A stretch of DNA of 64,000 nt from Bacteroidota bacterium (lineage in GTDB: Bacteria > Bacteroidota > Ignavibacteria > UBA10030): the NCBI GenBank assembly GCA_035559595.1, contig DATMBF010000005.1, positions 100,905 through 164,904 on the forward strand. Direction: 5' to 3'. The notes under the pieces were generated by a model that was not told where the DNA came from, did not search any database, and saw only the letters and a program-made list of their open reading frames with translations. The stretch's first letter is position 1. Each line of letters opens with the position of its first letter. Below, piece after piece: positions 21,571 to 64,000 of the stretch. The translations under genes and the position numbers were made by a program.

Positions 21571-23247
21571 TTAACGAAGCCTCTCGAGTGCCCTCAGTTT
21601 TTCTTCAGCTCGCCGCTTATATTCGAGCGTGGCTGTGTGTTGCGGATCGATCAGAAGGACTTTGTTCCACTCATCGAGTGCCGCTTTATACTCTTCTTTG
21701 ATGTAGAGCTGAACTCCAGCTCTGAAGATTTTGTCGATCTCAGTTTTTAGTGCTTCTCGCGCACGCTCGAGGTACGTCCTGGCATCACGATGTTTCTCGT
21801 CCCGCTGTAACACTTCGACCATTGTGTTTACAGCAACCCAATAATTCGATTCATCGAAGGCGGCTTTTCCACGCTCAAAGATTTCTTGCACTCTCTTCCC
21901 CCGCACGCTTTCGAGACCCTTTCGCGCGTCGGCATTGCGAGGCTCCATGGCGAGCACTCGCTCGAACTCTCTTTGTGCTTCGTCCAGCTGGTTGCGGCTC
22001 AACAGCGTGCGTGCGCGATTCAAGATCGTCTGGACGTTCTCCTTCATCATTCCCTCTAATTCGGTAAGCTTTACCATGATGCTATCATTCAGAGGGTCGA
22101 GTTCAAGCACCTGCTCATACGAACGCCGCGCACGCTCGAAATCTCGCCGCGCTCGAAGACTGTCACCAACCGAGAGCAGCCTTCGCACATTCGATTCGAG
22201 AATTGGTCTAACTGCCTCCAGCCGCTTTTCAACCTCGGAGTGATTCGGTTGCATTTTCAGAATTGTCTGATATCGTTTGATTGCCTCAACATAGTTCTTT
22301 CGTTCTTCAAGTTTCGATGCTTCGTCAAACAGGGCAGAAACGTTACTATCGAGCTCCGCTTGCGTTTGTTCAATCATTGCATGCGCATTGTGAAAATATT
22401 CATCGTACTCGAGAGCCAGAATGAATTGGTCACGGGCGTCCGACAGCCGTTTTTCTTCATATGCTTCCATCGCTGCTTCAAAATGCTTTGAACGTAAGTC
22501 TTTTGCAGCTTCGCTGAATCTGAAACTTACCGAGAAGACAATGCCGGCTTTGCCGGCCGCGAGCTCAAGTTTCGCAAAGTTGGATTGAAGACTGACCCCA
22601 CCGCGGATTTCCTTAAATGCACGAGATCCAACTTGGAGGCCCAACCAATCTGCAGCCAAGAGTTCGGAACCGACAACGAGTTCACCCCGCTCTGCTTTTT
22701 GCCATCCCGCCTGAACTCTCCAAGTGTCACGCAGGAGCCAAAACCCGACACCTGCTTGCAAACCCATCGGCGAACCGAAAGGCTGCTTCGGCAGATCGTT
22801 GACACTCACGCCGAAATGAAAGCCGGAATTCGCAGAAACGGAGTCCGGAAAATGGAGTGCAGATCCGACCGAGAAAGAAAACGTTTCCTTCGCATTTCGA
22901 AAAAGGTTCAGCACCGCTCCGATCGTGTGTACGTCGCCGATAAGTCCGCCATAGCCGACGGTGTATTGTGTTGCTTGACCGAGTTGCGCAATTCCGGCCC
23001 CAAACGTACCTACAAAGGGGAAAAAATGCGCAGCACTCATAGAAGAGAAATTTGAAAAGCGATTTGTACTGAGGAGAAACTCCGATTGATGGAGGCGAGC
23101 CATCTCAGCCGGATTAGAAAACAAGGCTGACGGACGGGGGAGCCACATACTTGAACTTCCGCCAAGTGCATAATCGTTACCCCCTGTTGTTTGTGCAGCG
23201 AGAGGAGAAATAATGAAAACAAGAAGAAGGTGGGGGAGGTATTTCAT
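21571..23247 (-). CDS. Secreted protein with an N-terminal beta-rich (possibly PorP/SprF-like barrel) domain and C-terminal TPR repeats
   Basis: A signal peptide and 250 aa or so of alternating-hydrophobic beta-like sequence containing an 'FSNPAEMARL' (NPA) motif. The rest is TPR-like repeats (e.g. 'YEQVLELDPLNDSIMVKL'). The gene overlaps the upstream cyclase gene by 4 nt. Confidence 0.55.
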   Translation of the reverse strand: MKYLPHLLLVFIISPLAAQTTGGNDYALGGSSSMWLPRPSALFSNPAEMARLHQSEFLLSTNRFSNFSSMSAAHFFPFVGTFGAGIAQLGQATQYTVGYGGLIGDVHTIGAVLNLFRNAKETFSFSVGSALHFPDSVSANSGFHFGVSVNDLPKQPFGSPMGLQAGVGFWLLRDTWRVQAGWQKAERGELVVGSELLAADWLGLQVGSRAFKEIRGGVSLQSNFAKLELAAGKAGIVFSVSFRFSEAAKDLRSKHFEAAMEAYEEKRLSDARDQFILALEYDEYFHNAHAMIEQTQAELDSNVSALFDEASKLEERKNYVEAIKRYQTILKMQPNHSEVEKRLEAVRPILESNVRRLLSVGDSLRARRDFERARRSYEQVLELDPLNDSIMVKLTELEGMMKENVQTILNRARTLLSRNQLDEAQREFERVLAMEPRNADARKGLESVRGKRVQEIFERGKAAFDESNYWVAVNTMVEVLQRDEKHRDARTYLERAREALKTEIDKIFRAGVQLYIKEEYKAALDEWNKVLLIDPQHTATLEYKRRAEEKLRALERLR

Positions 23248-24869
23248 TCTACTGGTGCGTAATCAATGCGGTGGACGGGGACTCGCTCCTGTTTTCCTTT
23301 GATAGCGACCTTCCCTTCCGATCGTGTCTTGTAATTGCCGTTGAGTCTCGCAACGACGGTATCGCCAACGAGAATCTGGTCAGCCTCTGCGATGGCGCAC
23401 AATCGAGCAGCGAGATTGACCGTATCACCGATGGCGGTGTAGTCCATTCTGTCTTGTGACCCGATGCTTCCCATCACGGCTACTCCTGTCGCAATACCGA
23501 TGCCAACCTTGAGTGTTATGTCGCCGCTGGCCCCCCGTTCCTTGTTGAGTTTTGCCACCGCACATTGGATGTCCACTGCCGCCTTAACGGCCTGCTGCAC
23601 CATCTTCTCGCCTGTGAAGATGCTCATAATCCCGTCGCCCAAGAATTTATCAACTACTCCGCCGTTCTGATGAATGATGGTTGTTTGCAGGTCGAGGTAG
23701 TGGTTCAACACGACGACAACCTCTTCAGGCCACTTACTTTCGGAAACAGAAGTGAAGTTTCGGATGTCTGTGAACATGGCGGTAATGACTCGCCGGCTTC
23801 CGCCCAATGTCACCTCTTTTCCCTGGGCGATCATTTGAGCTGTCGCTCTGGAAACAAACTTCTGCATCTCCGTCTTTTCCCGAATCTGCAAGACCATCAT
23901 GTTGAATTCATGGGCGAGGCTGCCTAACTCGTCTTTGACACGAGTGGCTACCGAGACTTTGAGGTCTCCCATCCCCACACGTCTTGCAGCATCGGCAAGA
24001 ACGATAATGATATGGACGGCCTTCTTCGAGAAGATCGCCACGAGAGCAATTACAATTATAGAGACAATCGAGGCCGTGAGAATGATAGTGTTTTTGAGCT
24101 CTTCGATTGGAGCAAGCAGGATGGCTTTCGAAAAGCCAACGGAAGCGGCCCCAATAAGGATCTGCTTGGTTTCATTTCCCTCTCTCTTTGACACAGTAAC
24201 CGCCTTGATAAATCTGAACGACTCGGGAGACTCGATCGCCCGTGCAGAATCAGTCCTTGCAAGGAGGTCCCACTCCGCCAACGAAATCAGCTTGTTCATG
24301 CTGTCAGGTACCACATGTGCAACAATCGTTCCCGTCCGATCGACGACGAACAAATGATCGAGCCCCGGAATGTTCTGCTTGGTGATATTCTTCACGTAGT
24401 CCTGCAAGACGATGTAAGAGCCCAGGAGAAGATTATCCTCGGCGACAGCGGCAAGACTCTGCACGATGTTCGTGCCCAACACTTGTGTTTGTACGCGAAG
24501 CTCCCGCTCCTGGATCTGCAGCGCAATGGTGCTAATGATGATCGTAACCACAATTACTGAACCGCCGACGATGAGGCTCAGCTTAATCCGAATCTTTAAT
24601 CGGAGGAAGGTCTCAACAGCATAACCCCACGCGGCCTGGAGGTTCTCTTTGATCGTGCGAGCAATGCGCCGAATAGCAGGTCTGGCTTTCGTTGTCTGTT
24701 GTTGAACGGAGTCCTGAAGAAGGAGCGTGAGTCGCGTGATTTCTTTCCCGAAACGTTTGGCGAGTGGTATGGTGTGATGAAACGCCTCTTCAACGTACTG
24801 TCGCGCGGCCGCGATCAGTTTCGACGCTGATGCGAGGATCCGTTTCGGGTCAAAGGAAGGAGTGGACAT
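23244..24869 (-). CDS. Membrane-anchored class III adenylate/guanylate cyclase with HAMP domain
   Basis: TM segments, a HAMP-like linker, then CYCc motifs 'VTAMFTDIRNFTSVSE', 'VDKFLGDGIMSIF' and 'GIATGVAVMGSIGS...DYTAIGDTVNLAARL'. Confidence 0.8.
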   Translation of the reverse strand: MSTPSFDPKRILASASKLIAAARQYVEEAFHHTIPLAKRFGKEITRLTLLLQDSVQQQTTKARPAIRRIARTIKENLQAAWGYAVETFLRLKIRIKLSLIVGGSVIVVTIIISTIALQIQERELRVQTQVLGTNIVQSLAAVAEDNLLLGSYIVLQDYVKNITKQNIPGLDHLFVVDRTGTIVAHVVPDSMNKLISLAEWDLLARTDSARAIESPESFRFIKAVTVSKREGNETKQILIGAASVGFSKAILLAPIEELKNTIILTASIVSIIVIALVAIFSKKAVHIIIVLADAARRVGMGDLKVSVATRVKDELGSLAHEFNMMVLQIREKTEMQKFVSRATAQMIAQGKEVTLGGSRRVITAMFTDIRNFTSVSESKWPEEVVVVLNHYLDLQTTIIHQNGGVVDKFLGDGIMSIFTGEKMVQQAVKAAVDIQCAVAKLNKERGASGDITLKVGIGIATGVAVMGSIGSQDRMDYTAIGDTVNLAARLCAIAEADQILVGDTVVARLNGNYKTRSEGKVAIKGKQERVPVHRIDYAPVE

Positions 24870-35221: not shown

Positions 35222-38200
35222 ATGAACGTTCTTCTTCGTTTTCTTTCTCTTCTGCTTGCAGTCAGTCCGCTTCTCGTTCAACGGTCTTTTTCACAAACAG
35301 GCTTCAAGGGTAAGGATCTTGATCACCCTATCTTCTTGGCACGGGTGAGTCCGAACGATTCGCTTGTCCAGCTTCCCCATCATTTCCTCATCTCTTCGAG
35401 TGTTACCGTCCATCTTGATACGCTAAACCTTGTCGATGGGCAAGACTATTCGCTAAATGCCCGATATGGACAGCTGAGATTACTCGCTGCTTTTAAATCT
35501 CGAATCCAACCTGATTCAACGGTTCAACTGTTGATCCGCTATCGAGCTCTTCCTCTGAACTTCAAGCCGGAATACCGACGCAACGAACTTATGATGCGAG
35601 GCATAGAGGGGGACACGACCTCTCGACGGATTGTGTCGAGCGCGGCAGCCTCTTCGTTCGGCGATTTGTTTGGGCCAAATCTTCAGAAAAGTGGATCGAT
35701 CTTTCGCGGGTTTACGTTTGGGTCGAATCGAGATCTCTCCCTGAGCTCTGGCTTTCGAATGCAATTGAGCGGAAAGCTTTCCGAGGATGTCGAGCTTGTT
35801 GCAGCGTTGACAGATGAGAATTCCCCCATTCAGCCCGAGGGATCGACACAAACTCTTCAGGAGGTCGACAAGGTGTTCGTTGAGCTTCAGCACCCTACCT
35901 ACGGTGCAACGCTTGGTGACTTTATGATCGAGCAAAGCAAGACGGAAGGGGGCGAGTTCGGGAGGTTCGCCAGAAAAGTTCAGGGAGCAAGGGGTGTGGC
36001 TCGCGCATCGTCCCTGGGAAGTGTTCTTGGCGTTGCCTCATTCTCCATTGCCGCAGCGACGAATCGTGGGAAATTTCACAATAATCAGTTTCAGGGAATT
36101 GAGGGTGCGCAGGGTCCATATCGGTTGAGCGGTCGAAACGGCGAGCGTCGCATCATTGTGATTGCAGGCAGCGAGCGCGTGTATCTTAACGGGGAGCTTA
36201 TGACGCGGGGAGAAACGAACGATTACGTCATCGACTATGCCGCTGCCGAAGTTACCTTCAGCAGCAAACGACTCATCACCAACGCTTCACGAATTAGTAT
36301 CGATTTTGAATATTCGGACCGTAACTATACCCGGAACCTCTTTGCTTCGACAACAAGCGTGCAGTCTGAAGACAAATCATTTTCCCTCAATGCTTCAGTT
36401 CTTCAGGAAGCGGATGACCCCGATTCTCCGATTGACGTCGCCCTTGACGAAACCAGCAAGTTCATCCTTCAGCGGAGCGGGGATGATCGGCTGAAGTCAA
36501 GCATCAGCGGTATCCGTTTTGTTGGGAATGACTCAGCCAGCGGCCTCCCCCTTGGTCAATACCTTCTGCAAGACACCGTCATCGCCGGCAGGTCATATTC
36601 CATCTTGGTGTATGCACCGGGGGATCCAGAGGCGCTCTATTCGGCTAATTTCTCGATTGTCGATCGCATGCCGGCCGATTCGGCCGGATACGAGCGCGTT
36701 GGCGTTGGGCACTTTCGCTTTGCGGGAATCGGCAAGGGGAATTACCTCCCGCTTCAATTCATTCCTCTTCCGCAGCGTCACCGGTTTTTGAACCTGAACG
36801 GTGGTGGAGTCGTGATGAAGGGACTTTCGATCAACGCGGAATATGCCGTTAGCGAGTTTGACGCGAATCGCCTCTCGATGCTCGATGCGCAGGATCAAAG
36901 AGGGACGGCCTCGAAAGTGACCGCTCAATACGAGGAAAAAGACGTCAGAATCGGCAGTGCAAATCTCGGTTCGCTTCGTTTTTCGTTCGGGCGTAGATAT
37001 GTCGATCGGCGCTTCGTTGCGCCGGACCGATTCAATGAAGTGGAATTCGGTCGCAAATGGGATGTTGACTTGAGAACAAAAACACACGAGGAGCTGCGGG
37101 AGGCGAGTGTTGCGTACTCACCATTTGCCGCCCTCAGTGTTGATGCAACGTATGGATCGTTCGAGCGACAAGGTGCGGAGCGGTCCACTCGCCTCGAGGC
37201 AGGTGTGAAGGTTGACCGGAGCGATGTGCCCCGGCTTTCGTATCGAGCAGAAAATATTCGTTCAGAGAATCATCTTCAACACACATCTTCTTCCTGGCTG
37301 CGCCAACGGGCTGCGGTGGATTATTCTTACGGTATGTTTGCTCCCGGATTGCGGGCAGAGGCGGAAAATCGGCTGGTCACTTCACGATTTTCGGATTCGG
37401 CGCTGGCCGGCAGTTTCAAGATTCTTGAGATAGCGCCCCGAATGGCAATAACGCAATGGGGACCCATGAATGCTTCCGTGGAATTTCAGATTCGCTCTGA
37501 GGACAGTGCCTCAGGCGGCCGCGTTCAAAGAGCCCTCGAATCGTTTTCTCAGCTTTACTCCTGGCAGCTCCGTGAGTGGAATTCTCTTTCCAGTCATCTT
37601 AATCTCAGTATCCGCACCGTTCGGTTCTCTGATGCATTCATAGCACGTGGCAATACCAATTCTGAAGTCATCCTTGTGAGGTCACTCTCGCGCTACATCC
37701 CCCTTCAGCGTGCTGTGGAGGCTGAAATCTTCTATGAGTTTTCCAGCCAGCGTTCGGCGCACCTTGAGCGTGTGTTCGTGCGTGTGCCGAGAGGAAGCGG
37801 AAACTATCGCTATCTTGGCGATCGTAATAATAACGGGATTGCAGATGAGGAGGAGTTTGAGTTGACCAGATTTGATGGGGACTACATTGTCGTTATGGTC
37901 CCAAGTGATCAATTATTCCCGATTGTAGAGCTCAAAGCAAGTTCGCGGTTGCGACTTTATGGAGAGCGTCTCGTGGGGGGGAACGGTCTCCTTGCGTCGA
38001 TTGCGCGGAGCCTTTCAACGGAAACGTATCTCCGCGTAGACGAAAGAAGCAATGAATCCGACACAAAACAAATCTATTTGCTCAACCTCAGCAGATTCCA
38101 GAATCCGGCAACAACCATCTCCGGTTCAAATCTGATCCAGCAAGATTTGCATGTTTTCGAGAACAAACCGGATCTCTCCTTTCGGTTCCGGTTCCAGCAA

Positions 38201-38779
38201 CGGAAAGGACTCGTTCAGCTTCTTTCTGTGACGGAACAAAACTCCATGCGTGAGCGGTCAGTTCGCATTCGGAGTCAGCTTGTCCGCGAGATTGGGAATA
38301 CCACGGAATTCGTGAATAAAACTGACCGCGTGGTGGCATCAGGGACAAGTCTACGCGAACGTGACATCTTTTCAAACGCATTGAGCTCGGACTTTTCGTA
38401 TCGACCGTTTGCACAATGGGAGATCGGCTTTCGTTTTGATGTGTCGGAGATTGAGGATCGATGGCCAGGTGTTGAGGCGAAGGCCGCAATTAATGAGCAG
38501 AGTGTCAGGGTAGTCTATGCAGTGTTCGGCCTTGGACAATTCAGGATAGAAGGGGAGAGGGAGGAGGTGATAGTGTTACAGGGATCGTCATCGACGAATC
38601 GACCGTTTGTCTTTGAGTTCACCGGCGGGAGAGTGATCGGGAAGACTTTGCTTTGGCAGGTTGCTTTTGATTATAGAATTGGTCAAAATGTACAGGTCAC
38701 CCTGCAATACAACGGTCGAACGGAAGGCGGGAGATCACCTCTTCACTTTGCTCGGGCCGAAGCAAGAGCATTTTTCTAA
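35222..38779 (+). CDS. Large (1185 aa) predicted outer-membrane beta-barrel protein, uncharacterised
   Basis: Signal peptide MNVLLRFLSLLLAVSPLLVQRSFSQ, beta-strand-like alternating patterns over its length, and a C-terminal aromatic residue (...RAEARAFF) typical of OMP beta-barrel signature. No family assigned. Confidence 0.55.
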   Translation: MNVLLRFLSLLLAVSPLLVQRSFSQTGFKGKDLDHPIFLARVSPNDSLVQLPHHFLISSSVTVHLDTLNLVDGQDYSLNARYGQLRLLAAFKSRIQPDSTVQLLIRYRALPLNFKPEYRRNELMMRGIEGDTTSRRIVSSAAASSFGDLFGPNLQKSGSIFRGFTFGSNRDLSLSSGFRMQLSGKLSEDVELVAALTDENSPIQPEGSTQTLQEVDKVFVELQHPTYGATLGDFMIEQSKTEGGEFGRFARKVQGARGVARASSLGSVLGVASFSIAAATNRGKFHNNQFQGIEGAQGPYRLSGRNGERRIIVIAGSERVYLNGELMTRGETNDYVIDYAAAEVTFSSKRLITNASRISIDFEYSDRNYTRNLFASTTSVQSEDKSFSLNASVLQEADDPDSPIDVALDETSKFILQRSGDDRLKSSISGIRFVGNDSASGLPLGQYLLQDTVIAGRSYSILVYAPGDPEALYSANFSIVDRMPADSAGYERVGVGHFRFAGIGKGNYLPLQFIPLPQRHRFLNLNGGGVVMKGLSINAEYAVSEFDANRLSMLDAQDQRGTASKVTAQYEEKDVRIGSANLGSLRFSFGRRYVDRRFVAPDRFNEVEFGRKWDVDLRTKTHEELREASVAYSPFAALSVDATYGSFERQGAERSTRLEAGVKVDRSDVPRLSYRAENIRSENHLQHTSSSWLRQRAAVDYSYGMFAPGLRAEAENRLVTSRFSDSALAGSFKILEIAPRMAITQWGPMNASVEFQIRSEDSASGGRVQRALESFSQLYSWQLREWNSLSSHLNLSIRTVRFSDAFIARGNTNSEVILVRSLSRYIPLQRAVEAEIFYEFSSQRSAHLERVFVRVPRGSGNYRYLGDRNNNGIADEEEFELTRFDGDYIVVMVPSDQLFPIVELKASSRLRLYGERLVGGNGLLASIARSLSTETYLRVDERSNESDTKQIYLLNLSRFQNPATTISGSNLIQQDLHVFENKPDLSFRFRFQQRKGLVQLLSVTEQNSMRERSVRIRSQLVREIGNTTEFVNKTDRVVASGTSLRERDIFSNALSSDFSYRPFAQWEIGFRFDVSEIEDRWPGVEAKAAINEQSVRVVYAVFGLGQFRIEGEREEVIVLQGSSSTNRPFVFEFTGGRVIGKTLLWQVAFDYRIGQNVQVTLQYNGRTEGGRSPLHFARAEARAFF

Positions 38780-56633: not shown

Positions 56634-58832
56634 CTACTTCTGTTGCAACACAAACACGCCGCTCCAATTTGCGTCTGGGGGATTAAGCTTGTACAATTGC
56701 ATGCGGTCGATATAGAGCTGGCAGACAGGATCCTCGGGCTTATACTGCATGGCGTGCTCCATATAGGCAATCCCTTCATCCCACTGCCTCTTGTGATAGC
56801 ATGTAATTCCTTCCCGGTAGCTATCCAGAAAATACTTCATGTTATCAGAAAGTGGTCGATCGGCGGCGGCGATCAGTTCATAAATCCGAACCGGCTCGGT
56901 TTTTCCGACCACAATGACTTTGTCGATCTCGCGGGCAACCACCTTTTTCGCAACCTTGAGATAGGTCATTTCACTGATGAGGATATATGTGCCGTACTGC
57001 TTGTTGACGCCTTCAAGCCGGCTCGCAAGATTCACGCTATCGCCCATCGCCGTGTAGTTGAATTTCTGATCGGATCCCATATTCCCCACAACGCAGAGTC
57101 CGGTGTTTATTCCTACCCTTTGCTTAATTGTTACATCCCCGAATTTCCTCCATCGAGGCGCGAGCGAATCAAGCTTCGCTTGCATTTCCAATGCCGCAAG
57201 GCACGCATGAAACGGCGCATCTGGATCCGGCAATGGTGCCCCCCAGAAGGCCATAATGGCATCTCCAATAAACTTATCCACCGATCCCCGATTCCTCATA
57301 ATGATATTGGTCATTTCCGTCAAATAAACATTCAAAAGTTTTACGAGGTTTTCGGGACCAAGCGTTTCGGAGATCGTTGTGAACCCCTTGACGTCTGAAA
57401 AAAGCAGTGTCACTTCGCGCATCTCGCCGCCAAGCTTCATCTTCGTCGGATCATTGATTAACTCCCGCACAACGGCGCGATCAACGTACTTCTCAAACAT
57501 ATTTGTGATCATCCGCTTCTGCTTACCTTCGGTCGCGGCCCTGTAGGCAACGGTTCCCAAGAAGCATGTGAACATCGCAAACACGGGTTCGATAACGTTA
57601 TACCAGGTATTCCCCTGAGCAAATGCAAAGTAAGCAAACGTAAAGTAGACAACGGTAAGAATCACCAGCGCTATCGTTCCAGTTTTCATTGGCCGGTGGT
57701 TGGCCACGAAGGAGATGCCAATGGTAATCAACAGGAGAATAACGAACTGCACCGCACCGGTAGCCGGATAGATGAAGTTGTTCGTCACAATCATGTCATA
57801 GACGTTTGCGTGCGCAACGTACCCTGGGGCGCGTTCGGAAAACGGCATGGGATAATAGTCGCCGACGGCTCGTGCCGTGGGCCCGATGATGCACACCTTG
57901 TTCTTGAACTGCTCAAAGAACTGCATGTCTTGATCCCGAAAGGCCTGGAGAACATCATAAAACGAGACCGAGGGAAGATTCTCGTAGGGTCCGATGTAAT
58001 TGATCAGGACATCGCCCTGGTGATCTGTGTCGAACGTAATCGGACCGGCCTTGACGGTCGTTCCGTCCTCCGTCGTTGTGAAGGAAATTTGATTTGGTCT
58101 AATCTTGAGGGTGTGGAGGGCGAGGGCAAGACCGAGGGTGGGGTAAAGCCGTCCAGCGTACTCCACAAAGGCGGGAACAGAGCGAATACTCCCATCTGGC
58201 GAGGGATGGAGAGTGGCATCACCGACGCCAGTTGAGACATCTGCCAATTCCTTGAACGGAAAGTCATTGATCAAGGGAGCTCGAAAGAAGGAATGCGTCG
58301 GAGGTGCAGGAATTCCAAATCTTCCAATGACGTGGTGTGCGGTGCTGTCGACATCTCGTGCGGAGATTGCTTCTCGTGACGTTTGGGCTGGAATAAACGG
58401 ACCGATAATTTGGAACGTCCCCTGCGTTGCTCGAAGCATCTCCACCATTTTTTGTGCTTCTTCAATCTCTTTCTCCGTCGGCTCAGCCGAGAAGATATCG
58501 AGCGCCACGGCTTTAGCTCCTCCGATATCAGGACGGCTCAGCAACGTCATTACCGCTCCAATCTGGTCGCGTGGAATCGGGTAGTTCATCTGCTGGATGG
58601 TGTATTCGTCGATCCGAATCATGACAACATCGCCGGCATGGGGACGCTCTCCGCGCACACGCATGAGCGCATCATACCCCTTCTGCTCGATGTTTCTGAA
58701 GATGTCGGTCCCGAGCGTATCGAGAAGGAGCGTGGTGTTAAAGAGAATATAGGTGAGAATGACCGTGCCAAGGGCAAAACCCAAGGCGACTCCGGATTTC
58801 TTAAGGTCAAGGTTCAGTTTGATGGTAGCCAT
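56634..58832 (-). CDS. CHASE2 sensor domain-containing class III adenylate/guanylate cyclase
   Basis: The N-terminal periplasmic CHASE2-like region lies between TM helices. Cyclase motifs are 'VTLLFSDVKGFTTISE', 'VDKFIGDAIMAFWGAP' and 'GINTGLCVVGNMGSDQKFNYTAMGDSVNLASRLE', and the C-terminal extension is typical of CHASE2-cyclase proteins. The start was chosen at MATIKLNLDLKK (58832); the ORF track start at 59144 adds 104 aa with no obvious features. Confidence 0.75.
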   Translation of the reverse strand: MATIKLNLDLKKSGVALGFALGTVILTYILFNTTLLLDTLGTDIFRNIEQKGYDALMRVRGERPHAGDVVMIRIDEYTIQQMNYPIPRDQIGAVMTLLSRPDIGGAKAVALDIFSAEPTEKEIEEAQKMVEMLRATQGTFQIIGPFIPAQTSREAISARDVDSTAHHVIGRFGIPAPPTHSFFRAPLINDFPFKELADVSTGVGDATLHPSPDGSIRSVPAFVEYAGRLYPTLGLALALHTLKIRPNQISFTTTEDGTTVKAGPITFDTDHQGDVLINYIGPYENLPSVSFYDVLQAFRDQDMQFFEQFKNKVCIIGPTARAVGDYYPMPFSERAPGYVAHANVYDMIVTNNFIYPATGAVQFVILLLITIGISFVANHRPMKTGTIALVILTVVYFTFAYFAFAQGNTWYNVIEPVFAMFTCFLGTVAYRAATEGKQKRMITNMFEKYVDRAVVRELINDPTKMKLGGEMREVTLLFSDVKGFTTISETLGPENLVKLLNVYLTEMTNIIMRNRGSVDKFIGDAIMAFWGAPLPDPDAPFHACLAALEMQAKLDSLAPRWRKFGDVTIKQRVGINTGLCVVGNMGSDQKFNYTAMGDSVNLASRLEGVNKQYGTYILISEMTYLKVAKKVVAREIDKVIVVGKTEPVRIYELIAAADRPLSDNMKYFLDSYREGITCYHKRQWDEGIAYMEHAMQYKPEDPVCQLYIDRMQLYKLNPPDANWSGVFVLQQK

Positions 58833-59349
58833 GGCGACCCAATTCGTGGTGTGAAAATGCTCGAAAAAACCGCCGTAATGTAAGAATGGACTCAGCCAAA
58901 AGCAACAGAAGGAGATGGCGAAGCAATTTGAGAAGAATCTGCGCTTGTCAAATCCCTCCCTGCTAAATGCCATGAACGACAGGCTCTTCCAGCATTCATC
59001 ATGTATTACTGTATCCGTCGATCCGGTCATTCGATTGGCTTCCTTGACATGCATACCCTCTTTTGATATATTGGCTCTACGTTTGGCAGGTCGGTTGTTA
59101 AACCATCCACTATAGTTTGCGACAGTTTGCGCAAGAAAGCGCACCGCTTCCTTCGTCTGGTACCCATTTCCACCACAATGGTTTGGCGTTCCTTCGATTC
59201 AGTCTTCGGTTGTTGCGTTTGCTCTCCGGTGATCATCCTCACATATTCTTCCGCTGAAAAACGGGTATTTTGTGTAGTTGACGATCAGCGGGGCGGGAGA
59301 ACCGTTTGCAGTGCACAGTTAACTACTCTCAACATTTCCGGTCAACACT

Positions 59350-59955
59350 ATGCACACTAAAGCCCCATCAAACCTCCCCTTGTTGGTCGCCATTGCAGCT
59401 TGTTTGAACTTTGCATTATCCACGGACGCTTCGGCGCAACGGAGAGGAGATACTCTCTCCGTTGGGGACGAGGCCCCAAAATTCTTGCTCCGCGAGGCGA
59501 TGACGAACGAGCCGACGTATCTGAGCGATTACTGCGGAAAAGTTCTTCGTCAACCGTGGAAAAAGCGAGAGCGGAATGCCGTCGTGATCAGCTTCTGGGC
59601 TTCGTGGTGTGAACCCTGTAAGATCGAAATCCCACTCCTCATGCGGATGGCTGAGGAGTTTAAAGACAAACCGGTGAAAATTTTCCTCGTCAACACGAGG
59701 GAGACAAAAGACATGACGGAAGATTCCATTCGGGCTGTGATGAAGCGGCGGGGTTACACGCTTCCGTGTCTCCTTGACGTGACGGGGACAGTTGCCGATC
59801 GGTACACGGTTCGTGGTCTCCCGATGATTGTTGTCGTCGATAAGTTCGGGGTGGTACGGAAGATCAACCGCGGCTATCATGAGAACTTCCATACCGAAAT
59901 TGCGGAATTGCTCCGGGAGCTCATTCAGGAAGATGAGGCGGCGGTGAGCAAATGA
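59350..59955 (+). CDS. Secreted TlpA/ResA-like thiol-disulfide oxidoreductase
   Basis: A signal peptide, with 'VVISFWASWCEPCKIEIP' as the thioredoxin-fold WCxxC active site. Confidence 0.75.
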   Translation: MHTKAPSNLPLLVAIAACLNFALSTDASAQRRGDTLSVGDEAPKFLLREAMTNEPTYLSDYCGKVLRQPWKKRERNAVVISFWASWCEPCKIEIPLLMRMAEEFKDKPVKIFLVNTRETKDMTEDSIRAVMKRRGYTLPCLLDVTGTVADRYTVRGLPMIVVVDKFGVVRKINRGYHENFHTEIAELLRELIQEDEAAVSK

Positions 59956-60479
59956 TCTTCGTTCCCACTAATCCCCAAGGACTTTCCATGAACCGCATAC
60001 TCCTTCTTGCAACTATCCTTACTCTCTTCATTGTCTCATGCACCCCCTCAAAGAAAGCCGCTTCTGGACCTAAGTTCACAGTGGCTGTTCTGGATTTCGA
60101 GGCGCGGGCTGGTGTGAAACCGGAAGAGGCGCTGACCATGCGGGATGCCTTCTCCACGTTGCTGCAGCAAACAGGACGGTTTACGGTTGTCGACCGGAGT
60201 CAGACCGAGAAAGTTCTCACCGAGCAACAGTTCCAGGCAATGCAATCGGGAGACGTCTCCGCGATGGGGAAGATGCTCGCCGTGAGAAAATTCGTTGCCG
60301 GTTCAGTGGGTAAGCTGGGTGAAGACTATATTTTCAATATCAAGATGACCGACGTTGAGACGGCGGGAATCGATTTTGCGATTTCGAAACGCTTCAACGG
60401 GGATATCGAAGATGTCGTTGAAGATCTCTTCCCGGAAATGGTGCAAGAGATTCTTAAAGCTGTCGATCAGAAGAAATAA
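59952..60479 (+). CDS. Lipoprotein with LpoB/CsgG/TolB-N-like fold (paralog 1)
   Basis: Lipobox FIVSC. 'FTVAVLDFEARAGV...EALTMRDAFSTLLQQTGRFTVVDRSQ...L.EQ' and 'LAVRKFVAGSVGKLGEDYIFNIKMTDVETAGI' parallel the conserved core of E. coli LpoB and the CsgG N-terminal domain. An alternative start is MNRILLL at 59988. Confidence 0.5.
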   Translation: MIFVPTNPQGLSMNRILLLATILTLFIVSCTPSKKAASGPKFTVAVLDFEARAGVKPEEALTMRDAFSTLLQQTGRFTVVDRSQTEKVLTEQQFQAMQSGDVSAMGKMLAVRKFVAGSVGKLGEDYIFNIKMTDVETAGIDFAISKRFNGDIEDVVEDLFPEMVQEILKAVDQKK

Positions 60480-60535
60480 GTAGAGTCAGAGCTTACGGGG
60501 AAGCTCTACACCACTCCAAAACCCAGGGAGGCTTT

Positions 60536-61243
60536 ATGGTATTCCGCTTTGCTTCGATGCGCTTCATGCGCATAGTTGTTCCACCGCTCCTTGTTGTTTT
60601 TCTTACGACGCCCCTTTGGACACAGACTCGCCAGGCACAACAGCGGCCGCAAAAGCTCAATGTCGCCGTGCTCGATTTCGATGCTCGAGCTGGCATATCC
60701 GCTGCAGAAGCGGCTACACTCTCTGACGCCTTTTCCGCCCAATTGGTGGAGACGGGCGAGTTCACGGTCGTGGATCGTAATCGTATCAAAGCTGTGCTGC
60801 AGGAACAGGGTTTCCAGCAAACAGAGGCATGCTCTCAGGTCGAGTGCGTCGTAGAAGCCGGTCGTATCTTGAACGTGCAGAGGATGTTTGCCGGAACGAT
60901 CGGCAAGATCGGTCGGACGTTTAACGTTACGGTGCAGGTCATAGACGTTGAGACGGCTCAGATCAGCATCAGCAAGAGCCGTCAGCATAGCGGTGCCATT
61001 GAGGAACTGCTTTCGGATGTCATTCCCGACATTGCGGCGGAGATGTCCAGCGAGCTAACTGGCAAGCGGGTGAGGACGAGCGTCGCGACAACGAGTACCG
61101 GTACGAGCTGGCTCTGGTATGCGCTTGGGACAGCTGTGATCGCAGGAGGCGGGGTTGCAGCCTATGTGCTGCTGGCGAAAAAAGAGGATAAGGTTGAGCC
61201 ATCGGAGCCGCTTCCGTCGCCACCGCCTTTTCCGGGAAACTGA
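60536..61243 (+). CDS. LpoB/CsgG-like fold protein (paralog 2) with a Cys pair, C-terminal TM helix and Pro-rich tail
   Basis: Signal peptide. 'LNVAVLDFDARAGISAAEAATLSDAFSAQLVETGEFTVVDRNR' and 'RMFAGTIGKIGRTFNVTVQVIDVETAQI' have the same architecture as paralog 1. It also has CSQVEC and a C-terminal hydrophobic helix (WLWYALGTAVIAGGGVAAYVLLA) followed by PSEPLPSPPPFP. Confidence 0.5.
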   Translation: MVFRFASMRFMRIVVPPLLVVFLTTPLWTQTRQAQQRPQKLNVAVLDFDARAGISAAEAATLSDAFSAQLVETGEFTVVDRNRIKAVLQEQGFQQTEACSQVECVVEAGRILNVQRMFAGTIGKIGRTFNVTVQVIDVETAQISISKSRQHSGAIEELLSDVIPDIAAEMSSELTGKRVRTSVATTSTGTSWLWYALGTAVIAGGGVAAYVLLAKKEDKVEPSEPLPSPPPFPGN

Positions 61244-61291: not shown

Positions 61292-64000
61292 ATGGGACTT
61301 TTCTTACGACTTCTACCACTGTTGATGATTCCGGCCCTCCTCCCCAGCCAGGATATCCTCAATTATCGATTCGTTACGAAAAGCGTTACCTACACACAGG
61401 TTAATGGATCGGCAGGTTCCACCGTTCCCGCGCTTTCCGGTGGGGACCTTGATGATGGATTCTACAATACAATCCCAATCGGTTTTACTTTCAAATACCT
61501 CGGGGCAAATTACACAACGATTTCGGCAGCTACAAATGGTTGGATAACATTTGGGCAACTCATTAGTGATGCATGGTTGAATAACAATCTAGAAACAGGA
61601 GGCATACGGCCGGTTGTCGCGCCGCTTTGGGACGATCTGGGACTTGGAATCGTAGGCGCTGCGTTTTCTTACAAGACTGAAGGGGTGGCTCCCAATCGCG
61701 TCTTCACAGCCGAATGGCTAAATGTTGCCTGGAATTTTTCTTCGTCCACGGCTGCAATATCATTTCAGCTAAAATTGTACGAAACTTCCAATGCCATTGA
61801 ATTCATCTACCGCCAGGAAGCCGGCGCCATTACTTCTGGCTCCGCCTCTATTGGGATCACTGCAACAGGTACAGGTTCTGGCGGCACGTATCTTTCTCTC
61901 TCGAATACAAGTACTTCTCCTTCTGTAAGTTCAACGATATCCACGAACACGATAGCGACTAAACCCGCTACAGGTCAAGTCTACCGCTTTGAACCTTCCG
62001 AGCCACAAATCACTTCGGTTTCTTCTTTCTCCGGTTCTGCTGGAGCAAGCATTACGATCAATGGCAGCGGATTTGCAACGGCGACAGTGAGTAATGCCGT
62101 CTATTTCGGAGGCGTGAAGGCTACCGTTACAAACGCAAGCCTCTCGTCATTGACAGTTACTGTACCCGCAGGAGCCGACTACGGTCCAATACGTGTTACT
62201 AACCTGATCACTGGTCTCACAGGGTCCACTGCTCAATTCTTCATGCCAACGTATTCCGGCGGCGGCAACATTACAACTGGTGCTTTTGCAGCAAAGGCCG
62301 ATTCTATCACAGGCGGCTCACCAGAAGGAGTTGCCGTGGGCGATATCGACGGCGATGGAAAACCAGACGTTGTTGTGGCCAACTTTGGCAGCAACACAGT
62401 TTCTGTTTTCCGTAATACGACGGCTTCTGGGTCGTTGACATTTGCATCGAAGGTAGACCTGACAGTTGGCAGTGGTCCGTATGACGTTGCGTTGGGAGAC
62501 ATCGATGGCGACGGGAAACTCGATATTGTGACCGGGAACTACTCGGCAGGCACAATTTCTGTGCTGAGGAACCAGAGCCCTGTGGGCGGCATTTCATTTG
62601 CGCCGAAAGTTGACTCCTTAGCGGGGAGTGAACCGTACAGTGTAGCGATCGCTGACTTTAACAGAGACGGTAAGCTCGATATTGTCGCTGCAAACTACAG
62701 CACCCTCACTGTCTCCGTATTACGCAATCAGAGTTCTCCAGGATCGATTTCTTTGCAGTCGAGGGTGCCATTCGCAAGTGGGAATGGTCTCTATCCAGTG
62801 GCTGTAGGGGATATTGATGGAGATGGGGCGGCGGATATCGTTGTCACCAACCAAAGCGACAACAATGTTTCGGTGCTGAGAAATACGAGTACTCCCAGCA
62901 CGATTTCCTTTGCCGCAAGGGTAAACTTTGTGACTGGGACGACGCCTGGTGGAATTGGAATAGGTGACCTGGACGCAGACGGAAAACTGGATCTCGTTAT
63001 TGCTAATCGGAATAGCAATACCATTTCATTGCTCAGGAATACAAGCAGCATCGGTGCTCCGAGCTTCGCGCCAAAGGCTGACTCAACGACTGGTTCATAC
63101 CCGGCCAGTGTCGCACTTGGTGACATCAATGGGGACGGCAAGTTAGACGTAGTTGTCACCAACGCTTCCTCATACACGCTTTCAGTCTTCCGAAACACCA
63201 GCAGTGGTTCCATTTCGCTCTCAAGCAGAGTGGATTTTGCGACGGGCATTTATCCGTGGGGTGTTATTGTAGCAGATCTCACCGAGGATGGGAAACCGGA
63301 TATTGGAGTTGCCAGCTCAGGTTCAAATCAACTCTCACTCTATCGTAATACGATCTTTGTTCCGTCGACGCTCACCTTTCAGGTTGATGCCCGGCCGGCG
63401 ATGGCGTGGGGAAGATTCAATCCCATCCGAGGGGATTCTCTCATTGTGCGTGGAGACAAATCTCCGTTAACGTTTTCGACAAACAGCTATGTTCTGACAG
63501 ATTCACTACCCGCTGATTCGCTCTATACGGTTACTGTTACCTTCGATACATTAGGGTCCTTGAACTTCAAATACGCTATTCGTCACGACGGATTTGATAT
63601 CTGGGAATTTGACAGTGCGGGGGCTGGAGGTAACCGACTCGCGACCCTGAGCTCGGGGAGTTTCAATCTCGCGCCTGTTTCATTCTCTGGCCTTCCTGGA
63701 TACCAGAGAAATGTTGGTGAATACCCTCGCAGTACCAATACCGTGGCATTGATTCGGTTGAATGAAAATCTCTCGAATGAGCAATATCATGTTGCCAACA
63801 GCGGACAGATCATGTTTGATTATAGTGGGAGAGGCAATCACGGGTATTTGCGAGGAACAACGCTTCAGCCAGGGAGATTCGGCAACTCCCGAGGATTCGC
63901 CGGCCCGTCGGATTACGTTGAGGTGTTACACCATCCATCGCTGAACGTGGGGACAGGTGATTTTACCGTAGAATCGTGGGTCAAGTTTACAAATACGAAT
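61292..64000 (+). CDS. Giant secreted surface protein (partial; runs off the window end): N-terminal unknown domain, IPT/TIG domain, 8 or more FG-GAP/VCBS beta-propeller repeats, start of a LamG/ConA-like domain
   Basis: Signal peptide MGLFLRLLPLLMIPALLPSQ preceded by a GGAGG RBS. The IPT-like segment is 'PQITSVSSFSGSAGASITINGSGF...VYFGGVKATV'. Repeats follow of the form 'VAVGDIDGDGKPDVVVANFGSNTVSVFRNT'. The in-window end 'GDFTVESWVKF' is typical of LamG domain starts. It is open to position 64000 (903 codons), so it is absent from the ORF track. Confidence 0.7.
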   Translation, partial: MGLFLRLLPLLMIPALLPSQDILNYRFVTKSVTYTQVNGSAGSTVPALSGGDLDDGFYNTIPIGFTFKYLGANYTTISAATNGWITFGQLISDAWLNNNLETGGIRPVVAPLWDDLGLGIVGAAFSYKTEGVAPNRVFTAEWLNVAWNFSSSTAAISFQLKLYETSNAIEFIYRQEAGAITSGSASIGITATGTGSGGTYLSLSNTSTSPSVSSTISTNTIATKPATGQVYRFEPSEPQITSVSSFSGSAGASITINGSGFATATVSNAVYFGGVKATVTNASLSSLTVTVPAGADYGPIRVTNLITGLTGSTAQFFMPTYSGGGNITTGAFAAKADSITGGSPEGVAVGDIDGDGKPDVVVANFGSNTVSVFRNTTASGSLTFASKVDLTVGSGPYDVALGDIDGDGKLDIVTGNYSAGTISVLRNQSPVGGISFAPKVDSLAGSEPYSVAIADFNRDGKLDIVAANYSTLTVSVLRNQSSPGSISLQSRVPFASGNGLYPVAVGDIDGDGAADIVVTNQSDNNVSVLRNTSTPSTISFAARVNFVTGTTPGGIGIGDLDADGKLDLVIANRNSNTISLLRNTSSIGAPSFAPKADSTTGSYPASVALGDINGDGKLDVVVTNASSYTLSVFRNTSSGSISLSSRVDFATGIYPWGVIVADLTEDGKPDIGVASSGSNQLSLYRNTIFVPSTLTFQVDARPAMAWGRFNPIRGDSLIVRGDKSPLTFSTNSYVLTDSLPADSLYTVTVTFDTLGSLNFKYAIRHDGFDIWEFDSAGAGGNRLATLSSGSFNLAPVSFSGLPGYQRNVGEYPRSTNTVALIRLNENLSNEQYHVANSGQIMFDYSGRGNHGYLRGTTLQPGRFGNSRGFAGPSDYVEVLHHPSLNVGTGDFTVESWVKFTNTN

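Follow-up and report, generated by a model that had tools for sequence, protein, structure and literature searches.

Gene organization of the locus

The window analysed here, the whole stretch of 64,000 nucleotides, carries three small genes (g1, g2 and g3) for a putative periplasmic oxidoreductase and two related envelope proteins, lying directly upstream of a gene for a giant FG-GAP surface protein as an earlier note had described. The question raised by this locus is what such a cassette does in the cell envelope, and in particular whether it acts on peptidoglycan synthases or curli-like secretion, as that note proposed, or on the giant protein beside it. The ORFs of g1, g2 and g3 were all present on the forward strand (Table 1). 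Upstream and divergent from g1 is a gene, called at 806 aa, for a cyclase with Pfam matches to CHASE2 (142.9 bits) and Guanylate_cyc (81.8 bits).

Table 1. Features of the cassette and its flanks, in positions of the window.
Feature	Position	Strand	Remarks
CHASE2-domain adenylate/guanylate cyclase	56634..59054	-	Divergent from g1; a GTG start could extend the ORF to 59144
CRP-type site, TGTGA-N6-TCACA	59228..59243		9/10 match; divergent promoter region
g1, predicted periplasmic TlpA/ResA-like thiol-disulfide oxidoreductase, 201 aa	59350..59955	+	Pfam and NCBIfam matches; WCEPC
g1 C87 codon	59608..59610	+	Active site
g1 C90 codon	59617..59619	+	Active site
ATGA overlap of g1 and extended g2 ORF	59952..59955	+	Upstream ATG of g2 at 59952
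g2, 163-aa lipoprotein, TolB-N/LpoB/CsgG-fold domain, no Cys pair	59988..60479	+	Lipobox, homolog starts, Pfam, Foldseek
g2 Cys18 codon	60039..60041	+	Lipobox Cys
g3, 235-aa bitopic protein	60536..61243	+	Signal peptide, fold domain, TM helix, Pro-rich tail
g3 C99-S-Q-V-E-C104 codons	60830..60847	+	Invariant Cys pair (C99 60830..60832, C104 60845..60847); loop and N-terminus of helix 102-112
Giant secreted protein gene, 5' part	61292..64000	+	3155 aa in full (full gene L001:4833-14300); continues past window end

The ATGA coupling of g1 and g2 claimed in the earlier note exists in the sequence, where the g2 ORF can be extended upstream to overlap the g1 stop, but it probably does not mark the true start of g2. 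Since the Met equivalent to position 59988 is the start in most of 26 g2 homologs (nearly all 160-174 aa long), including a 99%-identical 163-aa protein, the spacing between g1 and g2 is probably a gap of 32 nt. The giant gene begins 48 nt past g3 and is preceded by GGAGG. A promoter and terminator scan, otherwise uninformative, found no terminator-like site between the genes of the cluster.

The g1 oxidoreductase

The g1 product scored above the Pfam thresholds for AhpC-TSA (67 bits), Redoxin (55 bits) and Thioredoxin (42 bits), contains the active-site sequence SWCEPC (W86-C87-E88-P89-C90) and has a hydrophobic, signal-like N-terminus. The nearest NCBIfam model was ResA, at 81 bits against a cut-off of 170, and the scores for the other equivalog and subfamily models were also below cut-off (StoA 51 vs 210, DsbE 39 vs 123, TlpA 29 vs 230). 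All 30 neighbouring g1 homologs that cover the active-site region have an N-terminal signal sequence; 29 carry WC[EQK]PC and the remaining one YCVPC. With its thioredoxin fold, WCxPC motif and predicted periplasmic export, g1 is classed from its sequence as a TlpA/ResA-like thiol-disulfide oxidoreductase.

Fold of g2 and g3

The g2 and g3 products align over 166 aa with 37% identity (E 2e-35) and are true paralogs. Among the Pfam models for CsgG, LpoB and TolB_N, only CsgG was above threshold, with 33.4 bits for g2 and 32.4 bits for g3 against 20.8. LpoB (PF13036; 15.9 and 20.5 bits vs 22.3) and TolB_N (16.2 and 21.5 bits vs 22.4) were just below threshold, TIGR02722 (LpoB) gave 14.4 and 22.9 bits against 110.55, and TIGR02800 (TolB) gave 17 bits against 343. 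The earlier note would have counted the lack of a significant hit to Pfam LpoB or CsgG against its reading, and the result was positive for CsgG and sub-threshold for LpoB.

The AF2 models of g2 and g3 matched TolB-N, LpoB, PelC, CsgG and FlgT, and a beta-alpha-beta-alpha-(alpha)-beta-beta-beta-alpha core superposed on solved members of the fold. The g2 model (pLDDT 79) was matched by Foldseek to TolB, GNA1162, CsgG, LpoB and PelC at E 6e-7 to 1e-5. The LpoB/CsgG-N/TolB-N fold read earlier from sequence motifs was thus borne out, and as modelled both proteins belong to the TolB-N/LpoB/CsgG/PelC-like alpha/beta superfamily, a fold family of envelope transport adaptors and rings (PMC13631591). 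Both nevertheless fail the defining features of LpoB, CsgG and TolB proper. A sequence profile search of the PDB returned no relative with a solved structure at E<=1, and neither that search nor searches of the literature yielded a characterised homolog of g2 or g3; the literature searches also found nothing relevant on CsgG/TolB-like proteins tied to type IX secretion, PEGA or LpoB-like proteins. The two proteins represent an uncharacterised family of a known fold, whose function has to be read from context.

Because CsgG was the only model to pass, and because NCBI names g3 a 'CsgG/HfaB family protein', g2 and g3 could be taken for a CsgG/HfaB-type outer-membrane secretion channel for a curli- or holdfast-like fibre. 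The match to CsgG (PF03783), however, is limited to about the first 100 of 210 profile positions (8-101 in g2 and 2-98 in g3). The proteins reach half the length of CsgG; their mature domains measure about 135-145 aa and were modelled with five short strands (<=11 residues) and no hairpin insertions from which a barrel could form. In g3, the classical hydrophobic TM helix and the Lys-Lys behind it would arrest transfer in the inner membrane. Genes for curlin, csgE/csgF or holdfast proteins (hfaA/hfaD) were not found nearby. The missing barrel elements already largely refute the proposal of curli-like secretion, and we consider such a channel most improbable. The annotations 'CsgG/HfaB family' and 'TolB-like' on genes of this kind are uninformative about function.

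Membrane anchoring and the g3 cysteine pair

The two paralogs differ in how they are attached to the envelope. g2 has the lipobox IVSC with a Cys (Cys18) that is nearly invariant in its family, and about 11 residues separate this lipid-bearing Cys from the first strand at residue 30. g3 consists of a signal peptide (about residues 1-29), the TolB-N/LpoB/CsgG-fold domain (about 38-175), a TM helix (about 191-213) and a conserved LPxxPxFP tail at the C-terminus. Its signal is of the signal-peptidase-I type: a Gln that is almost invariant follows the predicted cleavage site, and an N-terminal Cys is absent. Of the two paralogous lipoproteins described earlier, the paralogy and the lipidation of g2 therefore stand and the lipidation of g3 does not. 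The inner-membrane anchor previously assigned to g3 is likewise present and conserved, but the Pro-rich tail should face the cytoplasm and not extend to the periplasm, because it follows the membrane helix and Lys-Lys.

The Cys-x4-Cys pair, the C-terminal hydrophobic helix and the Pro-rich end noted before are all conserved in 47 g3 homologs, in which C99, C104, W192, G198, L226, P230 and P233 are invariant. The pair was found in 47/47 close homologs and at all 81 genome loci, and, among the best 150 representatives from a library of 1.84 billion proteins, in 195 of about 205 aligned domains covering those columns. With 16,353 cluster representatives at E<=1e-3, the homologous domain family is a very large one, and its members have varied anchors and architectures: a TM helix with a Pro-rich tail, an aromatic C-terminus typical of outer-membrane barrels, PEGA repeats with DUF5683, and tandem domains. 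One protein, P0006, is a tandem of two g3-type domains; since both contain Cys, its interpretation as a g2-g3 fusion was rejected. Several genomes encode two or more g3 homologs.

These features bear on the proposal that the cassette regulates peptidoglycan synthesis. LpoB, the PBP1b activator of enterobacteria (PDB 4Q6L/4Q6Z), is an outer-membrane lipoprotein with a long flexible linker that binds and activates PBP1b through its UB2H domain. That g2 and/or g3 reach and stimulate a class A penicillin-binding protein in the same way gains something from some distant relatives that exceed the cut-off of the Pfam LpoB model, namely L032 (28.5 bits) and L033 (26.4 bits). The window proteins themselves do not, and TolB-N, PelC, CsgG and FlgT match their models about as well as LpoB does, so that the fold is not diagnostic. 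Moreover g3 is no lipoprotein and g2 lacks a long linker, no peptidoglycan genes (and no PBP gene) occur among the annotated ORFs of the window, none of the former occurs in the conserved neighbourhoods, and g3-type copies are multiple per genome, several with their own giant. Regulation of cell-wall synthesis by the cassette is unlikely, and LpoB-like activation of a PBP very unlikely.

The giant protein and its linkage to g3

The giant protein contains TIG, nine FG-GAP, LamG, BNR/Sortilin, PPC and fn3 domains. Its last 120 aa match the T9SS type A sorting domain TIGR04183 with 31.1 bits against a cut-off of 23, and by this domain (TIGR04183/PF18962) it is a predicted type IX secretion cargo. 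TIGR04183 was recognised in 19 of the 25 complete giants encoded beside g3 homologs; the other six had no recognisable T9SS domain, and an example from Fibrobacter ends in a FISUMP domain. A search for a shared N-terminal recognition domain, by jackhmmer with the first 240 aa, matched a single other locus (L072); an N-terminal module common to the giants is therefore absent. The giant of the window contains no cysteine, and several orthologous giants have none in the mature protein. Action of g1 on disulfides of the giant was therefore rejected, and the Cys pair of g3 is left as the only conserved thiol target in the operon.

The strongest signal in the analysis is the near-obligate pairing of g3-type genes with giants, which the earlier note had treated as incidental. 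Among the short-type g3 homologs (<=290 aa), 41 have 2.7 kb or more of downstream sequence; in 35 of these (85%) the next ORF on the same strand has at least 800 aa and follows directly, a length reached by 76 of the 761 called genes in the background. The spacing is typically short (median about 40 nt, up to 240 nt) or the genes overlap, and the pairing occurs in Ignavibacteria, Marinimicrobia/Fidelibacterota, Fibrobacterota, Calditrichota, uncultured Cytophagia, UBP2 and Raymondbacteria. In at least two genomes each g3 copy has its own giant (CAZHOJ01 at L017, L024 and L027; JALONQ01 at L005 and L007), and one giant per g3 copy suggests a cargo-coupled factor.

A looser relationship can also be envisaged, in which the g3-type domain is a general envelope scaffold or tether that can be fixed to either membrane and the giants are adjacent through mere co-expression of surface genes. 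The size of the domain family and its many anchor types are consistent with this, as is the finding that a giant follows only 5 of 19 long-type homologs. For the short TM-anchored type, however, adjacency at this frequency across at least seven phylum-level lineages, with close spacing or overlap, makes loose co-expression unlikely, and we regard the scaffold as an improbable account of g3.

The other genes of the cassette are conserved to a varying extent. The trio g1-g2-g3 was found in 20 of 27 Ignavibacteria-type loci, to which g2 is restricted, and the g1-g3 pair recurs in Marinimicrobia and other lineages of the FCB group (Fibrobacterota-Chlorobiota-Bacteroidota), so that the expected co-conservation in related genomes was found. 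A thioredoxin-like gene is directly upstream in 29 of 81 loci, which include the 20 trios and the g1-g3 pairs of distant phyla. In other phyla, folding-helper genes stand upstream of g3 homologs, namely a HEAT-cyclophilin PPIase with a TPR protein, or HEAT with TPR. The neighbours of g2 and g3 are the thioredoxin-like protein, the CHASE2 cyclase, the giant T9SS cargo and a TPR protein. In Ignavibacteria an 836-aa TPR protein follows the giant; its N-terminus is the conserved 'C3', which measures 370 aa in Marinimicrobia. Homology between g3 and 'C3' was unsupported (hhalign probability 0.4%), and matches of 'C3' and the neighbour c8 to FlgO and LPP20 were weak and sub-threshold. A third homolog search, with a Cytophagia-type query, returned uncultured lineages alone and no tractable model organism.

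The cyclase raises the alternative that g3, with g2 as partner, senses the redox or envelope state and modulates the CHASE2 cyclase through its TM helix and LPxxPxFP tail, the cyclic nucleotide then controlling expression of the giant adhesin. The cyclase adjoins 26 of 81 loci, being divergent and upstream in Ignavibacteria, whereas in Marinimicrobia it stands downstream together with a FecR-domain protein; five of the invariant g3 residues (W192, G198, L226, P230 and P233) lie in the TM helix and tail; and a CRP-type site is present in the divergent promoter region. However, two thirds of the loci lack the cyclase while the giant is almost never missing, and the cassette showed neither a transcription factor nor a cNMP-binding protein. 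The CRP-like site is confined to the closest relatives (L013 and L021), most loci scoring no better than shuffled sequences, and cAMP-CRP control of the operon was rejected on this ground. Envelope signalling of this kind appears unlikely.

Proposed function

We propose that g1, g2 and g3 form a periplasmic accessory module, probably dedicated to the adjoining giant type-IX-secreted surface protein, and give this reading a probability of roughly 0.4. g3 would be exported by Sec and its signal peptide cleaved, so that the TolB-N-like domain would sit at the periplasmic side of the inner membrane, anchored by the C-terminal helix with the short Pro-rich tail in the cytoplasm. g2, the Cys-less lipoprotein paralog, would probably pair or co-oligomerise with g3. 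g1 would set the redox state of the g3 Cys-x4-Cys, most likely keeping the pair reduced; the dedicated thiol-disulfide oxidoreductase proposed earlier is plausible, given that g1 co-occurs with g3 across phyla and that the adjacent giant is Cys-free. Once Sec has exported the very large Cys-free cargo, the module may receive it, hold it or pass it on before it reaches the type IX translocon, and the adjacent CHASE2 cyclase possibly controls this. Tandem proteins such as P0006 were counted in favour of cargo handling because they show that such domains work side by side; the folding-helper genes beside g3 homologs in other phyla and the transport roles of the fold family were counted likewise. 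The analysis showed the fold, the topology features, the paralogy, the conserved Cys pair and the linkage of the genes, whereas physical interactions, the direction of the redox reaction and the part played in cargo handling are inferred.

Several points weigh against the accessory module, among them the six complete giants with no recognisable T9SS domain, the restriction of g2 to Ignavibacteria-type loci and the failure of the searches to find a characterised homolog. Linkage was established by gene adjacency, which is not itself proof of physical interaction. A simple periplasmic holdase would have no need of the conserved cytoplasmic tail and TM residues of g3, which hint at contact with an inner-membrane machine or at signalling. 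The giants are also variable in composition, and the sorting domain is the only obvious common site for the conserved domain of g3. A wider generalisation is possible but doubtful: that g3-type proteins are an unrecognised cargo-coupled component of giant-adhesin type IX biogenesis across the FCB superphylum, one per giant, switched by a TlpA-like reductase and in some lineages wired to CHASE2. The g3 type would then act as a checkpoint, gated by redox state and by signals, on the way from Sec export to the outer-membrane translocon.

To our knowledge, the periplasmic handling of type IX substrates of several thousand residues is not understood, and cargo-specific type IX helpers are known for one class of sorting domain only. 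A widespread small family, with thousands of sequence clusters and giant-adjacent members in at least seven phylum-level lineages, offers a testable candidate for this handling step. Bacteroidota-related bacteria have many orphan TlpA-like oxidoreductases, and g3 may also represent a new class of substrate for them.

Comparison with known systems

As with TlpA, ResA and CcmG, g1 combines a thioredoxin fold and WCxPC with an N-terminal export signal, and the active site of its best NCBIfam match is CEPC in B. subtilis ResA. Like TlpA, which acts on ScoI/CoxB, it is encoded with a protein bearing a short Cys-spacer motif. It differs in lying far under the equivalog cut-offs and in its proposed substrate, g3, which would be new; no gene for cytochrome c maturation or for a copper chaperone adjoins g1.

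Compared with LpoB, g2 and g3 show about 13-16% identity and no long disordered linker; g3 has in addition a C-terminal TM anchor and the Cys-x4-Cys that is missing in g2, and their partner in the genome is a giant secreted protein, whereas nothing points to a PBP. TolB has an N-terminal domain followed by a six-bladed beta-propeller and is encoded in the tol-pal operon, whereas g2 and g3 (163 and 235 aa) have no propeller after the domain and no tol-pal genes nearby. CsgG/HfaB share the core fold and are encoded beside an extracellular adhesive protein, but g2 and g3 lack the membrane hairpins and do not match the latter half of the CsgG profile, and g3 is unlipidated; CsgG exports an unfolded amyloid subunit, and the cargo here would be a folded multi-domain T9SS substrate. 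Homology to T9SS core or accessory proteins (PorK/L/M/N, SprA, PorV/U/Z/Q/P/E/W) was absent from the Pfam and NCBIfam matches of g2 and g3.

PelC, PqiC/PA3214, LptE and FlgT/FlgO/FlgP are ring- or plug-forming outer-membrane lipoproteins of transport or flagellar machines; no pel, MCE, lpt or flagellar genes are found near the cassette, and the inner-membrane TM anchor and conserved cytoplasmic tail of g3 have no counterpart among the structural matches listed. The putative g2-g3 assembly may be likened to the rings formed by same-fold members such as CsgG, PelC and PqiC-like proteins, and to the adaptors TolB and LpoB.

Gene organization and conservation of the cassette

All three co-directional ORFs of the earlier note, g1 (TlpA/ResA-like thioredoxin, Trx), g2 (lipoprotein) and g3 (a Cys-x4-Cys protein with a C-terminal TM helix), were found in place in the window, and an identical g3 protein, named 'CsgG/HfaB family protein [Bacteroidota bacterium]' at NCBI (source, a MAG), is carried in the same gene order by a 22.5-kb metagenome contig. 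The suggestion that the two small proteins are paralogs is borne out by 37% identity (E 2e-35), and a six-frame search of the window found no extra copies of g1, g2 or g3. The ATGA overlap of g1 and g2 does exist in the DNA, at 59952-59955, but the real g2 start is probably 59988, as this is where the start Met of most of 26 homologs falls; the family is mostly 160-174 aa, and a nearly invariant lipobox Cys lies 18 residues past this Met. Lipoprotein status holds for g2 but not for g3: the latter lacks an N-terminal Cys, and past its hydrophobic signal sequence comes a nearly invariant Gln (Q30). Exposure of this Gln by signal peptidase I would fit the 'Q-rule', reported as strong in Ignavibacterium album (PMC5837995). 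The giant surface protein gene begins 48 nt after g3, each of the two is preceded by a Shine-Dalgarno-like GGAGG, and a window scan found no terminator-like site between the four genes.

Neighborhoods were scanned using one genome per species, yielding at least 456 relatives, and the best 80 loci were examined. These span Ignavibacteria/Bacteroidota MAGs, Marinimicrobia/Fidelibacterota, Fibrobacterota, Calditrichota, KSB1, Edwardsbacteria, Raymondbacteria, uncultured Cytophagia and UBP2. As the earlier note anticipated, the genes are kept together, with the g1-g2-g3 trio in the window's order and strand in 20 of the 27 closest loci and a Trx gene directly upstream in 29/81 loci overall; g1-g3 without g2 occurs in L004 and at least eight Marinimicrobia and FCB-group loci. 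The dominant association of g3 is with the next gene downstream. Among short-type homologs (<=290 aa) with enough downstream sequence, 35 of 41 had a same-strand ORF of >=800 aa as the next gene, a size reached by ~10% of called genes in these loci, and the spacing was typically short (median ~40 nt, up to 240 nt) or overlapping. Exceptions include L015, which looks like a frameshifted giant, and L030, which looks like a toxin-antitoxin insertion. Domains of the giants vary (FG-GAP, BNR/Sortilin, LamG, fn3, Big_5, Listeria-Bacteroides repeats, FISUMP) and no common N-terminal module was found among them; a T9SS type A sorting domain (TIGR04183) ends 19 of 25 complete giants, including the window's own. 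Several genomes hold more than one g3 homolog, and in at least two, CAZHOJ01 (L017, L024, L027) and JALONQ01 (L005, L007), every copy has its own giant, with Trx and g2 at only one of these loci. This association is new and strong; literature searches found no papers on the g3 family or its link to giant T9SS cargo.

Coordinates of features in the window and at related loci (L numbers)
Feature	Position	Strand	Remarks
g1	59350-59955	+	201 aa ORF
g2	59952-60479 as ORF	+	175 aa; family start points to 59988
g3	60536-61243	+	235 aa ORF
Giant	61292-64000; full gene L001:4833-14300	+	3155 aa, Cys-free, C-terminal T9SS type A sorting domain
CHASE2 cyclase	56634-59054		divergent, upstream of g1
sCache-HAMP-Guanylate_cyc	23244-24869	-	second class III cyclase; then 558-aa TPR protein, 21571-23247
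1185-aa ORF	35222-38779	+	no Pfam match found at E<=1e-5
768-aa protein	within 10765-14699	-	multihaem cytochrome c-like motifs, C-terminal TPR repeats
557-aa protein	within 10765-14699	-	FixO-like, two cytochrome c domains; adjoins 768-aa protein
836-aa TPR protein	L001:14322 onward		window's contig
HEAT-repeat/cyclophilin PPIase fusion, TPR protein	L032:5241-7967		directly upstream of g3 homolog; Calditrichia
HEAT protein, TPR protein	L074:5289-7909		directly upstream of g3 homolog; UBP2
C3, c8	L037:5306-7267; also L040, L042, L044, L056, L063, L072		370 aa, weak FlgO hit; 281 aa, weak LPP20 hit
MNT-HEPN pair	L026:7294-7984		between Trx and g3 homolog
MNT-HEPN pair	L030		between g3 homolog and giant
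Long g3 homologs, other anchors	L032:7998-9182, L033:4620-6914, L048:8058-10214, others		PEGA/DUF5683 fusion or Phe-ended

Fold and architecture of the g3 family

The LpoB/CsgG/TolB-N fold proposed in the earlier note proved correct as judged from AlphaFold2 models and Foldseek. The g3 model (mean pLDDT 80, >90 across most of the domain; alignment of 47 sequences) has a beta-alpha-beta-alpha-alpha-beta-beta-beta-alpha domain at residues ~38-175, and C-terminal to it a disordered linker leads to a helix (191-213) and a tail; the g2 model (pLDDT 79) returned the same fold set. The models thus place g2 and g3 in this fold at the superfamily level; it is shared by envelope proteins of many unrelated functions (PMC13631591). 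No solved-structure relative was detectable by sequence, even with the family profile.

Searched against a library of 1.84 billion proteins, a g3-homolog profile matched 16,353 cluster representatives at E<=1e-3, with 720 of them at E<=1e-30; many have a tandem two-domain architecture. One 395-aa JGI metagenome protein (P0006) has a tandem of two Cys-x4-Cys domains before a TM helix and Pro-rich tail. The Cys-x4-Cys pair (C99/C104) is invariant in 47 close homologs and occurs in 81/81 genome loci and in 195 of ~205 aligned domains covering those columns among the top library representatives. Conservation in the family peaks in the segment that contains it, LxEQGFQQSEACSQVEC, where helix 102-112 begins; g2 retains the EQxFQ portion without the cysteines. 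W192, G198 and G204/G205 of the membrane helix and L226, P230 and P233 of the extreme C-terminus (LPxxPxFP) are invariant or nearly so, and Pro-rich C-termini of this kind are also seen in Marinimicrobia, Calditrichota and UBP2. Since Lys-Lys follows the helix, the tail should be cytoplasmic by the positive-inside rule. Some distant relatives fuse the Cys-x4-Cys domain to six PEGA repeats and DUF5683, and other long relatives (390-760 aa) end in a C-terminal aromatic (Phe), as in outer-membrane barrels; as these anchors differ, the domain appears to be tethered to either membrane across lineages. Close relatives all come from uncultured organisms, and database names are generic ('CsgG/HfaB family', 'TolB-like', even 'LPXTG-motif', the latter due to the C-terminal helix). 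Within a known fold, this is a distinct, very widespread family whose architecture (Cys-x4-Cys, C-terminal TM, Pro-rich tail) is new.

Proposed redox partner

The g1 product has a WCEPC active site and exceeds the Pfam cut-offs of AhpC-TSA, Redoxin and Thioredoxin, while the closest NCBIfam model, ResA, gave 81 bits, well below its 170-bit cut-off. By fold and motif it is TlpA/ResA-like, yet it is the equivalog of no named enzyme. Neighboring Trx homologs have a signal sequence and keep WC[EQK]PC, with a single exception (YCVPC). The window's giant contains no cysteine, and in L004, L003, L013 and L027 any cysteine of the giant is confined to the N-terminal signal region; several orthologous giants beside a Trx gene are likewise Cys-free in their mature part. 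Because the giant is Cys-free and the lipid Cys is the sole cysteine of mature g2, g1 could act within the operon on just one conserved thiol pair, C99/C104 of g3, which supports the dedicated oxidoreductase suggested earlier. WCxPC proteins of the ResA/TlpA type (ResA, CcmG, TlpA) act as reductants where studied, and by this analogy we favor a g3 pair kept reduced and functional, in metal binding, redox sensing or mixed disulfides, over the less likely purely structural disulfide.

Neighboring genes and proposed role

A CHASE2 adenylate/guanylate cyclase adjoins in 26 loci, divergent and upstream in Ignavibacteria, or downstream of the giant alongside a FecR-domain protein in Marinimicrobia; together with the sCache-HAMP cyclase it gives the window two sensor cyclases. 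The CHASE2 cyclase and g1 are separated by a divergent promoter region in which GGTGATCATCCTCACA (59228-59243), ~120 nt before g1, fits the CRP-type palindrome TGTGA-N6-TCACA at 9/10 positions; similar sites at comparable distance were found only in the closest relatives (L013, L021), most loci scoring no better than shuffles. TPR proteins, HEAT-repeat proteins and a HEAT-cyclophilin fusion also recur as neighbors; those directly upstream of the g3 homologs in L032 and L074 are putative further folding helpers. Ahead of the Trx-g3-giant unit, Marinimicrobia/FCB-group loci encode two conserved secreted proteins, C3 and c8, neither of which has a Pfam assignment. Over its residues 126-282, C3 shares homology with the N-terminus of the 836-aa TPR protein whose gene follows the giant in Ignavibacteria; comparison gave no support for a relationship of C3 to g3. 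A nucleotidyltransferase/HepT-like (MNT-HEPN) toxin-antitoxin pair sits inside the cassette of L026 and L030.

From the folds, sequence features, conservation and linkage described here, we propose tentatively (probability about 0.4) that g1-g2-g3 assists the co-encoded giant. g3 would sit at the periplasmic side of the inner membrane, g2 would be its lipid-anchored partner without the Cys pair, g1 would set the state of that pair, and the module would help the giant on its way from Sec export to the type IX translocon. A simple holdase does not explain the conserved g3 TM helix and cytoplasmic tail, and this keeps alive an unlikely signaling variant, with g3 modulating the CHASE2 cyclase or reporting to it.

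Comparison with LpoB, CsgG and TolB

The earlier note had envisaged regulation of peptidoglycan synthases or curli-like secretion. Pfam CsgG is the only above-threshold family for g2 and g3, with a match limited to the first half of the model, whereas the LpoB models stay below threshold. Nothing ties the genes to peptidoglycan synthesis, and no such link was found among the annotated window ORFs (folP, GT2 glycosyltransferase, PCMT, miaA, SUF, dxs, uvrD, cytochromes, two cyclases). Membership in LpoB was rejected: LpoB is lipid-anchored with a long linker, whereas g3 is unlipidated and neither protein has that linker. The LpoB idea, from which the finding drew its appeal, is unsupported, and the linkage to giant cargo and redox is a concrete, testable lead. 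Membership in CsgG was rejected, and curli-like secretion is very unlikely, since g2 and g3 lack the barrel hairpins and second profile half of CsgG and no curli genes were found nearby. TolB was likewise rejected, being a propeller protein of tol-pal loci, whereas g2 and g3 have no propeller and stand apart from tol-pal genes.
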